In this document: positions 3,244-41,509 of the stretch, piece by piece
Position numbering within the stretch: the stretch's first letter is position 1
Layout: every line of letters starts with the position of its first letter
The notes under the pieces: generated by a model
Databases searched by the model: none
Told to the model about the DNA's origin: nothing
What the model saw: only the letters and a program-made list of their open reading frames with translations
Assembly: GCF_056746865.1 (NCBI RefSeq)
Contig: NZ_CM163382.1
Reading direction: 5' to 3' (one strand)
DNA: 64,000 nucleotides
Program-made: the position numbers and the translations under genes

Positions 3244-6356
<3,113 letters not shown>

Positions 6357-38177: not shown

Positions 38178-39272
38178 TTACATTGTGGTTTTCAATGCGT
38201 TATCCGCAGCGTGACGCTCCAGCGCCAGTTCAATCAAACGGGTGATCAGGTCGGTGTAACCCAGACCGCTGGCTTGCCACAGCTTCGGATACATACTGAT
38301 GTTGGTGAAGCCAGGCAGTGTGTTGATCTCGTTGATCACCACTTCGTTCTCTGGGGTTAAAAACACGTCTACACGCGCCATGCCTGCGCATCCCAACGTC
38401 TGATAAGCCTGAACGGCAATCGCCCGGATCTTATCGTTGATTTCTGGCGCAATGGCTGCCGGAACTACCACTTTCGCGCCATCTTCATCAATGTACTTGG
38501 TGTCGTAGGCATAGAAATCGCTGGTGAGTACGATCTCGCCACAGGTGCTGGCTTGCGGATTGTCGTTGCCCAGAACTGCGCATTCGATCTCACGACCTTT
38601 GATCCCTTGCTCAACGATCACTTTATGGTCGAACTCGAACGCCAGATCGACGGCAATTGCGTACTGTTCTTCACTGGTTACTTTGCTGACACCAACAGAA
38701 GAGCCCTGATTAGCCGGTTTTACAAACAGCGGTAACCCCAGTTTAGACTCCACTTCGGCAAAACTGATGTTGTGACGATTAGCGCGCGTCAGGGTAATAA
38801 ATGGCGCAATGTTCAGCCCGGCATCGCGCAGCAGACGTTTGGTGACATCTTTATCCATACAGGCCGCTGAAGCCAGAACATCAGAACCTACAAACGGTAA
38901 ATTGGCGACCCGCAGCATTCCCTGCAAAGAACCATCTTCGCCCAGCGTACCGTGGACAATCGGGAAAATGACATCCACCGTCGGCAACGGCTGACCGTTT
39001 TGCGTGTCGATAAGCTGATGTTCATGTTTACCAGGCACCTGCGCAAGACTGGTCGCCGAAGGGCGCAATGCAATATGGGCAGGATCGTCTGCATTTAGCA
39101 GATAATTGCTGGCATCGCTGACGTGCCATTGCCCTTGTTTATCAATGCCCAGCAGCACAACGTCGAAGCGACTTTTATCAATGGCATCGACAATGTTTTT
39201 TGCCGATTGCAGAGACACTTCATGTTCCGCTGATTTACCACCAAAAACGATTCCTACCCGCAGTTTTTCCAT
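38178..39272 (-). CDS. ddlA: D-alanine--D-alanine ligase A
   Basis: 364 aa, [30 protein letters not shown]-grasp ligase. Confidence 0.93.
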
Positions 39273-39733
39273 CTTAAAAACCTATCCCGTCTAACACAAA
39301 GTGCATACATTACCACGACAAAACGGGGGATTCGCGGCCTTCTGACAGAATGTTGCAATCTTCTGCTGACAAAGCGTGCAACGTACTGGTGAAGAAAGTG
39401 CGTTATCTCAATGATGTGCGCAAGATCACAAAAATGATGAACGGGAAGCTAATTTATTCCTGGCTTGTATGGCCATGCAGTGAGTTTTTTCTCTTAATTA
39501 TAAGTTAACGAAGAGAATATATTTCATAACTTTTATTTATAATAAAGGTTGATAATTAAAAGCCTATATTTTGTGTGGGTAATTATTAAAATAAGAGAAA
39601 CGTTTCGCTGGTAATCAAACAAAAAATATTTGCGCAAAGTATTTCCTTTGTCATAAAAATAATACTTCCAGACACTATGAAGTTGTGAAACATAATGTTA
39701 ACTTCTCCATACTTTGGATAAGGAAATACAGAC

Positions 39734-39994
39734 ATGAAAAATCTCATTGCTGAGTTGTTATTTAAGCTTGCCCAAAAAGAAGAAGAGTCGAAAGAACTGT
39801 GCGCGCAGGTAGAAGCTTTGGAGATTATCGTCACTGCAATGCTTCGCAATATGGCGCAAAATGACCAACAAAGGTTGATTGATCAGGTAGAGGGGGCGCT
39901 GTACGAGGTAAAGCCCGATGCCAGCATTCCTGACGACGATACGGAGCTGCTGCGCAATTATGTAAAGAAGTTATTGAAGCATCCTCGTCAGTAA
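39734..39994 (+). CDS. iraP: anti-adaptor protein IraP (RpoS stabiliser)
   Basis: 86 aa, [33 protein letters not shown] coiled-coil. Confidence 0.88.
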
Positions 39995-40093: not shown

Positions 40094-41509
40094 GTGAAAC
40101 AAAGCACTATTGCACTGGCACTCTTACCGTTACTGTTTTCCCCTGTGACAAAAGCCCGGACACCAGAAATGCCTGTTCTGGAAAACCGGGCTGCTCAGGG
40201 CGATATTACTGCACCCGGCGGTGCTCGCCGCTTAACGGGTGATCAGACCGCTGCTCTGCGTGATTCTCTTAGCGATAAACCTGCAAAAAATATTATTTTG
40301 CTGATTGGCGATGGGATGGGGGACTCGGAAATTACTGCTGCACGCAATTATGCCGAAGGTGCGGGCGGCTTTTTTAAAGGTATCGATGCCTTACCGCTTA
40401 CCGGACAATACACACACTATGCGCTGAATAAAAAAACCGGCAAACCGGACTACGTTACCGACTCGGCTGCATCAGCAACCGCCTGGTCAACCGGTGTCAA
40501 AACCTATAACGGTGCGCTGGGCGTCGATATTCACGAAAAAGATCACCCAACGATTCTGGAAATGGCAAAAGCCGCAGGTCTGGCGACCGGTAACGTTTCT
40601 ACCGCAGAGTTGCAGGATGCCACGCCCGCCGCGCTGGTGGCGCATGTGACCTCGCGCAAATGCTACGGTCCGAGCGCGACCAGTGAAAAATGTCCGGGTA
40701 ACGCTCTGGAAAAAGGCGGGAAAGGATCGATTACCGAACAGCTGCTTAACGCTCGTGCCGATGTTACGCTTGGCGGCGGCGCAAAAACCTTTGCTGAAAC
40801 GGCAACCGTCGGCGAATGGCAGGGAAAAACGCTGCGTGAACAGGCACAGGCGCGTGGTTATCAGTTGGTGAGTGATGCTGCCTCGCTAAATGCGGTGACG
40901 GAAGCGAACCAGCAAAAACCCCTGCTAGGACTGTTTGCTGACGGCAATATGCCAGTGCGCTGGCTAGGACCGAAAGCAACGTACCACGGCAATATCGACA
41001 AGCCCGCAGTTACCTGTACGCCTAATCCGCAACGTAATGACAGCGTACCGACCCTGGCGCAGATGACCGACAAAGCCATTGAATTGTTGAGTAAAAATGA
41101 GAAAGGTTTTTTCCTGCAAGTTGAAGGTGCATCAATCGATAAACAGGATCACGCTGCGAATCCTTGTGGGCAAATTGGCGAGACGGTCGATCTCGATGAA
41201 GCCGTACAACGTGCGCTGGAATTCGCTAAAAAGGATGGCAACACGCTGGTCATAGTCACCGCTGATCACGCCCACGCCAGCCAGATTGTTGCGCCGGACA
41301 CCAAAGCGCCGGGCCTCACCCAGGCGCTAAATACCAAAGATGGCGCAGTGATGGTGATGAGTTACGGGAACTCTGAAGAGGATTCACAAGAACATACCGG
41401 TAGTCAGCTGCGTATTGCTGCGTATGGCCCACATGCCGCCAATGTCGTTGGACTGACCGACCAGACCGATCTCTTCTACACCATGAAAGCCGCCCTGGGG
41501 CTGAAATAA
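40094..41509 (+). CDS. phoA: alkaline phosphatase
   Basis: GTG start, signal peptide [20 protein letters not shown], active-site DSAASATAW, 471 aa. Confidence 0.96.

Follow-up and report, generated by a model that had tools for sequence, protein, structure and literature searches.

The ddlA–iraP spacer of Escherichia coli as a probable composite promoter region derived from gene loss, with a candidate RbsR-type operator upstream of iraP

The lifetime of RpoS, the sigma factor of the general stress response, is set by anti-adaptors such as IraP. In the DNA analyzed here (64 kb in total, hereafter the window), the gene for this protein is preceded by a long spacer, and the question raised by this locus is what such a spacer contains. 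A sequence-only reading had described the segment as about 460 bp of AT-rich, non-coding DNA that was large enough for complex regulatory input or an unannotated small transcript. The whole window was found to be Escherichia coli DNA, and the segment under study was the spacer between the divergent genes ddlA (minus strand) and iraP (plus strand). The end of ddlA at 39272 and the iraP ATG at 39734 placed the spacer at exactly 39273–39733, and its length of 461 bp agreed with the earlier estimate. The identity of IraP was confirmed by Pfam PF10796 (E = 3.6e-34) and by the NCBIfam equivalog NF007598 (137.8 bits, cutoff 78). Segment 39200–39800 was 100% identical to strain 118UI and 98–99% identical to K-12 and O157:H7, and it was found in 5,422 of the 5,426 complete E. 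coli genomes. The curated K-12 record has no feature annotated inside the ddlA–iraP spacer. According to the analysis described below, the spacer is probably a composite promoter region made of ordinary promoter DNA that was left by gene loss, and not a gene. Most of the spacer is explained by known biology together with a gene-loss event. The coordinates of the features are summarized in Table 1.

Table 1. Features of the ddlA–iraP region in window coordinates.
Feature	Position	Strand	Description
ddlA coding sequence (D-alanine--D-alanine ligase A)	38178–39272	−	Open reading frame and RefSeq annotation; divergent left neighbor
Block A, conserved ddlA-proximal region	39273–39378		88–95% identity among Escherichia species
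PGAP 'hypothetical protein' WP_001300163.1	39350–39553	+	67 aa in K-12-like strains; 52 codons here, flagged frameshifted
CRP site TGTGCGCAAGATCACA	39415–39430		Center 39422.5; 9/10 match to TGTGA-N6-TCACA, best in the spacer
−10-like hexamer TAATTT of the putative relic promoter	39450–39455	+	19 bp after the CRP site
Hypervariable junction (putative deletion scar, mdtG-like coding sequence missing)	39464–39493		37–43% identity among Escherichia species
AT-rich block	39494–39593		About 23% GC; homologous DNA in other genera lies upstream of iraP
Candidate RbsR-type LacI-family operator AGAGAAACGTTTCGCT	39594–39609		Center 39601.5; 15/16 match to the rbsD operator
Promoter P2 (putative hexamers)	39630–39667	+	−35-like TTGCGC 39630–39635; −10 block CATAAAAATAAT 39652–39663; start 39667 (−67)
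Promoter P1	39696–39711	+	Extended −10 TGtTAACTT 39696–39704; start 39710/39711 (−24/−23)
Shine-Dalgarno sequence AAGGAA (39720–39725) and iraP coding sequence (39734–39994)	39720–39994	+	
phoA	40094–41509	+	Annotation; downstream of iraP

The base composition of the spacer was examined over its length. The GC content of the whole spacer was 34.5%, compared with 51.3% for the whole window. The claimed AT-richness was correct for the iraP-proximal 253 bp (39481–39733, 26.1% GC), in which the interval 39494–39670 reached 23.2%. Only 0.2% of the 250-bp windows had a GC content as low as this half, and four regions of this kind were present in the 64 kb, this half included. The claim did not extend to the ddlA-proximal 208 bp (39273–39480), which had a GC content of 44.7%, near the norm of the window. 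A repeat search of the spacer returned low-complexity AT palindromes only.

The description of the spacer as non-coding was in line with the curated K-12 record but not with most RefSeq E. coli genomes, in which PGAP calls a 67-aa hypothetical protein. If this call were right, the spacer would encode a real small protein, and its annotation in thousands of RefSeq E. coli genomes, with hundreds of identical database entries, speaks for such a reading. However, the curated K-12 record does not contain it, and the loss of one base pair from a T run left it frameshifted in the present strain. The frame was also broken among Escherichia, with the first stop at 18, 18, 24, 44, 52, 52, 52 and 67 codons in eight sequences. 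The product belonged to no Pfam or NCBIfam family, was confined to E. coli/Shigella, and ranged from 45 to 81 aa with many truncated variants, and the conserved stretches of the "peptide" coincided with regulatory blocks A and C. Moreover, no plus-strand start was detected upstream of the frame by Cappable-seq in glucose medium. WP_001300163.1 was judged to be a spurious gene call, and a genuine protein at this position is hardly credible.

The origin of the spacer was explored by comparing the iraP loci of 80 species from about 25 enterobacterial genera. The distance between ddlA and iraP was about 460 bp in six Escherichia species and about 2.4 kb in most other genera. The interval in most Enterobacteriaceae was filled by two genes, an extensin-like gene whose product is Extensin-like_C (PF06904; 53 of the 80 loci) and an mdtG-like MFS transporter gene (66 of the 80 loci). 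Against the MdtG equivalog, the transporter reached 543 bits, slightly short of the 571-bit cutoff, indicating that it was a paralogue of MdtG. Both genes were missing from all Escherichia in the set. The similarity of the E. coli spacer to other genera was divided into three pieces, which matched three ancestral intergenic regions. The first piece (39273–39354) resembled the DNA that separates ddlA from the extensin-like gene, the second (about 39411–39452) resembled the DNA directly upstream of the transporter gene, and the third (about 39501–39733) resembled the iraP-upstream DNA. The hypervariable junction had no similarity to other genera, and no coding remnant of the two lost genes was found in the Escherichia spacer (nothing better than E = 0.3). 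The simplest history suggested by these alignments is that the ancestor of Escherichia lost both coding sequences, which would have left three regulatory spacers fused together. Such a deletion scar would explain the unusual length of the spacer, the presence of a nanomolar CRP site with no obvious gene to serve, and the phantom reading frame that annotation pipelines call in thousands of genomes.

The CRP site lies in the second of these pieces. It corresponds to K-12 positions 401066–401081, where a site assigned to "ddlA / iraP" was reported by Footprint-seq (ttTGTGAtcttgcGCACAtct, center 401077) with a Kd of 1.2 nM in vitro. The CRP site at ddlA / iraP was listed as previously undescribed in the 2026 Footprint-seq preprint, and a weight-matrix scan had predicted the ddlA–iraP CRP site in 2009. 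In about 45 species, a perfect TGTGA-N6-TCACA was located 129–130 bp before the start codon of the mdtG-like gene and was followed 19 nt later by TAAAA[C/T], an arrangement that places CRP close to −41.5 in these species. The E. coli site was homologous to that of the mdtG-like gene, and its spacing to the −10 element was retained. In E. coli, the geometry would place the CRP center at about −39.5 to −41.5 (class II), with a predicted start at about 39462–39464. The block 39414–39463 had 88–98% identity among Escherichia species, whereas the flanking 30–35 bp on each side had 37–60%. The conservation of the CRP block against its decayed flanks indicates purifying selection. The recently reported CRP site thus appears, on sequence comparison, to be a conserved relic of the promoter of a deleted gene, and this is a secondary new point of the work.

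The putative relic promoter was compared with class II CRP promoters. The shared features were a 9/10 CRP site located 19 bp before a −10-like hexamer and a nanomolar affinity in vitro. The relic differed in that the gene that it served was deleted, its −10 element was degenerate, and no transcript was detected in glucose-grown cells. The hexamer TAATTT is weak, and its first T was lost in two Escherichia lineages. Cappable-seq of mid-log M9 glucose cells gave no plus-strand start at the relic promoter. CRP is largely inactive in glucose-grown cells.

FNR was also connected with this part of the spacer. An FNR ChIP-seq summit was reported at 400,328 (U00096.2), which corresponds to about 39453 in the window, and iraP was classed as directly repressed by FNR (Myers et al., 2013). 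The FNR ChIP signal at the spacer was 0.44, against 0.96 in cells mutated in both hns and stpA. No good FNR consensus was found under the summit, and the nearest candidate was the CRP-type palindrome about 30 bp away; hence, FNR was assigned to the CRP site by proximity only. On this basis, FNR most likely binds the CRP-type site in vivo. The AT-rich stretch beside it is probably coated by H-NS/StpA, as suggested by its GC content of 23–26% and, indirectly, by the doubling of FNR occupancy in the absence of hns and stpA.

On the other side of the CRP site, block A presumably holds the 5′ UTR and the promoter of ddlA. Its sequence from 39273/85 to 39354 was 70–87% identical in Salmonella, Citrobacter, Enterobacter and other genera, and the similarity ended at 39354. 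A consensus scan gave a candidate extended −10 element, TGgTAATGT, on the minus strand at 39315–39307.

The transcription of iraP was evaluated with plus-strand Cappable-seq sites from mid-log M9 glucose cells, which represent a single condition. Three starts were recorded (U00096.2, plus strand), at 400543 (score 297.7), 400561 (score 3.3) and 400587 (score 167.6). With the ATG at 400610, these starts are at −67, −49 and −23, i.e., at 39667, 39685 and 39711 in the window. The P2 start at 400543 was the strongest at the locus by relative read score. A start at −24 with the −10 element "GTTAACTT" was obtained by directed 5′ RACE, and a sigma-70 ChIP peak was located at 400584. iraP has two substantial promoters, P1 and P2. 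The sequence-only reading would have been undone by a single promoter immediately upstream that accounted for all iraP transcription; all detected starts were indeed no more than 70 nt from the ATG, but they belonged to two promoters in the one glucose-grown condition.

The two promoters were characterized further by their sequences. The interval 39656–39667 in P2 was 60–99% conserved across about 25 genera. The discriminator of P2, AATACT, was A+T-rich, as expected for a ppGpp-activated promoter, and the discriminator of P1, CTCCAT, did not fit this type. Starvation for phosphate, among other kinds of starvation, is reported to activate E. coli iraP transcription through ppGpp and DksA (Bougdour and Gottesman, 2007; Girard et al., 2018). 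The published ppGpp/DksA-dependent promoter is at the same locus, and the AT-rich discriminator of P2 would fit it. The 5′ UTR of iraP was 95–100% conserved in Escherichia. Earlier work on ppGpp/DksA control reportedly dealt with what was apparently one promoter, without RbsR, CRP or FNR input. A CsgD site has reportedly also been described for the iraP region.

The suggestion of an unannotated small transcript fared less well. There was no significant Rfam match (at a permissive threshold, nothing was better than E = 0.3, and the families were eukaryotic and far below their gathering scores), and a terminator scan of the spacer gave no site. No plus-strand start was detected by Cappable-seq in glucose medium between the yaiZ region and −67. 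The sole annotated open reading frame was not conserved, even within Escherichia. A small RNA encoded in the AT-rich region, or a long regulatory leader of iraP, would be favored by the folding of a hypothetical 296-nt leader from the relic promoter, which was better than that of shuffled controls (z = −3.27), and by the existence of a 218-nt PhoP-dependent leader in Salmonella. However, the 97-nt P2 leader with the first 30 nt of iraP showed no unusual folding relative to shuffled sequences (z = −0.42), and the DNA between the conserved blocks was unconserved. Moreover, the best match to the PhoP box (T/G)GTTTA-N5-(T/G)GTTTA in the E. coli spacer was 9/12, a value equal to or below the maximum of most of 300 shuffles. 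In view of these results, a small RNA or a regulatory long leader is very unlikely.

The region upstream of iraP in Salmonella enterica was compared with that in E. coli in the same respect. Salmonella iraP has a PhoP-activated promoter with a 218-nt leader and several starts (Tu et al., 2006; Zwir et al., 2012). Both published PhoP boxes were present in the Salmonella loci, 272 and 178 bp before the ATG. Two elements are common to both species, the −10 block of P2 and the RbsR-type palindrome, which begins 140 bp ahead of the ATG. Salmonella retains the two genes between ddlA and iraP as well as the PhoP boxes, whereas no match to the PhoP box exceeded chance in E. coli. The place of the distal PhoP promoter of Salmonella is taken in E. 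coli by the deletion junction and the putative relic CRP promoter. The Salmonella region homologous to the AT-rich block 39494–39593 is a long 5′ leader that holds the second PhoP box.

The feature of the spacer that appears to be new is the palindrome upstream of P2. It is a 16-bp dyad with a central CG and the core AAACGTTT, and its halves are AGAGAAAC and GTTTCGCT. The operator core of K-12 rbsD is AGCGAAACGTTTCGCT, and the rbsD operator was read directly from the K-12 upstream DNA as TCAGCGAAACGTTTCGCTGA. The sequence AGAGAAACGTTTCGCT matched this core at 15 of 16 positions with an identical right half-site, and its outer specificity positions agreed with those of the validated rbsD operator (AGCG...CGCT). 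A 15/16 match is calculated to occur by chance about 0.1 times per genome of E. coli size, and the next best match to the palindrome in the 64-kb window was 12/16. The full-text literature searches returned no report linking RbsR to the DNA of iraP, yaiB or ddlA, and an RbsR-type operator before iraP appears to be unreported. Five RbsR peaks are reported from a genomic SELEX study (Shimada et al., 2013), and the iraP palindrome may be among them.

The conservation of the palindrome was evaluated across the same loci. It was invariant (100%) in all Escherichia species, whereas the next 17 bp (39610–39626) were only 24–53% identical. In the window, the palindrome is 140 bp before the iraP ATG. 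In about 60 of the 80 species, the version G[A/C][G/A]AAACGTTTCG[C/T]T was present 123–141 bp before the iraP ATG, with unconserved flanks. Leclercia, Cedecea and Pseudescherichia were among the groups with species that lacked the palindrome. Nearly all species had GTTTCGCT as the right half, which is also the half-site of the rbsD operator. The distance from the palindrome to the −10 block of P2 was 51–53 bp in 23 of the 25 species in which the strict −10 motif was matched. In a conservation profile of 81 sequences, the palindrome ranked with the core promoter and the ribosome-binding site.

These values bear on a plainer reading of the spacer, in which only the proximal iraP promoters and the ddlA promoter are active, the AT-rich DNA is filler (UP-element or H-NS-bound), and the palindrome and the CRP site are non-functional leftovers. 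This reading is consistent with the detected plus-strand starts, all of which were at most 67 nt from the ATG, with the spacer being partly a deletion scar, and with the promoter scan, which gave 3 sites against 2.8 expected, i.e., the chance level in AT-rich DNA. However, leftovers should decay, and the CRP block and the palindrome were retained in Escherichia at 88–98% and 100%, respectively, beside adjacent DNA at 24–60%. Moreover, the palindrome persisted in about 25 genera, and its spacing to iraP was fixed. The plain divergent spacer is thus considered unlikely. The complex regulatory input that had been anticipated was supported, as the spacer serves two divergent genes and has two strong mapped iraP starts (−67 and −23), a high-affinity CRP site beside an in vivo FNR ChIP peak at a gene reported to be FNR-repressed, and a deeply conserved RbsR-type palindrome of the LacI family in addition to the published ppGpp/DksA control of iraP.

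The identity of the protein that would bind the palindrome was also considered. PurR, Cra or another member of the LacI family could occupy it in place of RbsR, because the central AAACGTTT is common to all of them. The left half-site varied by genus, with AGAG, AGAA or AGCA before AAAC, and CTGAATCGTTTTAAT was found at the equivalent place in Cedecea species. This sequence resembles a half-site of Cra. However, the outer specificity bases fitted RbsR, the consensus sequences of Cra and PurR agreed with the palindrome at about 10 of 16 positions, and the 15/16 match to the rbsD operator can be set against 9/16 for the genuine purHD PurR box, with which essentially the AAACGTTT core was shared. 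Among the reported RbsR targets, add, udk and purHD had sites that matched at no more than 9–11 of 16 positions, far below the iraP palindrome. A LacI-family protein other than RbsR is therefore regarded as improbable, more so than the plain spacer, and RbsR is the preferred candidate.

The position of the palindrome was compared with that of known operators. The operator of rbsDACBKR is likewise a 16-bp palindrome with a central CG, but it is located immediately upstream of the ribosome-binding site and the start codon, as would suit classical repression, whereas the putative iraP operator is centered at −65.5 from P2 and −109.5 from P1, upstream of both promoters. It did not overlap or follow a promoter, unlike the operator at rbsD. 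Repressors of the LacI family do not usually bind in such a place, which counts against the RbsR reading. Simple occlusion is thus unlikely, and a non-classical mode of action is suggested. Upstream action is known in the LacI family from GalR at the gal OE operator (−60.5) and from Cra, which acts as an activator when bound upstream. In these cases, as is proposed for iraP, the dimer is placed about 60–65 bp before the start and by an A/T-rich UP-like region; this likeness is an analogy only. Since the palindrome is upstream of the −35 element, the bound protein may act via the alpha subunit of RNA polymerase or the UP-element region, probably as an activator.

A mechanism in which RbsR acts at iraP can be proposed as follows. 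From left to right, the spacer would consist of the ddlA promoter and leader, an orphaned class II CRP promoter, the AT-rich stretch, the 16-bp RbsR-type operator, and P2 with P1. The output of iraP would be set at P2 and P1 by ppGpp/DksA. In the absence of ribose, a LacI-family dimer, most likely RbsR, would occupy the palindrome at −65.5 from P2 and further modulate this promoter. With ribose, RbsR would leave the DNA, which would lower IraP and in turn the stability of RpoS. The distal CRP/FNR site might also let carbon and oxygen status feed in, through a conditional iraP transcript with a long leader or in some other way.

The proposed mechanism was considered in light of the genetics of Salmonella. 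Mutants of rbsR and iraP were obtained from one screen, and both had less RpoS protein; the rbsR mutant showed unchanged transcription of rpoS, and the authors suggested some unknown control at the post-transcriptional or post-translational level (Wenner et al., 2024). The sequence alone does not set the sign of the effect of the palindrome, but these results point to activation. Tentatively, RbsR at the palindrome activates iraP, such that ribose tunes the RssB-dependent proteolysis of RpoS across Enterobacteriaceae, and the orphaned CRP promoter was perhaps co-opted in Escherichia as a distal input to iraP for cAMP and oxygen signals; this proposal is possible rather than probable. According to published work, iraP responds to ppGpp/DksA in E. 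coli and to PhoP in Salmonella, and an RbsR-type operator would add a sugar-sensing input. If the proposal is true, it would directly explain the lower RpoS in Salmonella rbsR mutants and provide the missing post-translational mechanism. A path from RbsR to IraP to RpoS would extend a network that is already well studied by one new candidate link, with no paradigm changed.

The rbsR phenotype of Salmonella also has a rival or parallel route, namely derepressed rbsD mRNA. A 2023 preprint reportedly ascribes an effect of ribose on RpoS to rbsD mRNA, which would lower the translation of RpoS. The proposed IraP route is coherent with the rbsD-mRNA route, and ribose would lower RpoS by both.

Two genes, encoding an extensin-like protein and an mdtG-like transporter, lie between ddlA and iraP in most Enterobacteriaceae and are absent in Escherichia. 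They were also fully or partly lost in eight of the iraP loci compared across species, namely L012–L014 (Citrobacter sp.), L015 (C. amalonaticus), L021, L022, L080 and L085. Such losses in several lineages outside Escherichia suggest that the two intervening genes disappeared repeatedly and independently. The extensin-like gene was kept in C. amalonaticus, and an intact transporter gene was absent; the only match to the transporter gene there was a weak one to its first 11 codons, which was at chance level (E = 0.4). The iraP gene itself was disrupted in E. coli O121 strain 201805972 (NZ_CP119441.1; L005), where IS1A was inserted in the spacer (locus 3330-4427) directly after the position corresponding to approximately 39514 in the window. 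This locus lacked the 5' part of iraP; hence, the isolate is a natural strain without intact iraP and its promoters.

The RbsR-type palindrome found upstream of iraP in other genera was not present in Cedecea and related loci (L070, L075, L078, L079 and L082). Its place, approximately 117 bp before the iraP ATG, was occupied by CTGAATCGTTTTAAT, which is similar to a Cra (FruR) half-site, judged by the Cra consensus. This Cra-like appearance at the palindrome position hints at a regulator swap. A Salmonella hydrogen-peroxide preprint (bioRxiv 10.1101/115360), combining Tn-seq and proteomics, reportedly mentions both rbsR and yaiB (iraP), and may provide further genetic evidence for the two genes in one pathway.

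The features located in the window are listed in the table. Near ddlA, TTCTGaCAGAA and CAGAATGTTGCAATCTTCTG were invariant or nearly invariant among the Escherichia species compared, and these nested palindromes may be an operator of ddlA, or formerly of the extensin-like gene. The ORF of WP_001300163.1, annotated by PGAP in the majority of approximately 5,400 complete E. coli genomes, overlapped the regulatory blocks of the spacer, and its reading frame showed no conservation across the Escherichia species compared. It appears that PGAP systematically miscalls a gene here.

For a hypothetical leader running from the relic promoter, a CRP-type promoter of the lost transporter gene, into iraP, the predicted fold was more stable than those of the shuffled sequences that served as controls (z = -3.27), and none of 200 shuffles matched its stability. 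The block upstream of iraP was equalled or exceeded in AT-richness by three further segments of the window.

Features located in the window and their basis
Feature	Window position	Detail	Basis
Nested palindromes TTCTGaCAGAA + CAGAATGTTGCAATCTTCTG	39340-39365	Conserved ddlA-proximal block	Sequence
'Hypothetical protein' WP_001300163.1 (PGAP)	39350-39553	Within ddlA-iraP spacer	RefSeq annotation
Hypothetical 296-nt leader	39468-39763	Relic promoter into iraP	Prediction
AT-rich segment	22800-23410	Minimum GC 21.6% (250-bp windows)	
AT-rich segment	29191-29597	Minimum GC 25.2% (250-bp windows)	
AT-rich segment	62732-63357	Minimum GC 28.0% (250-bp windows)
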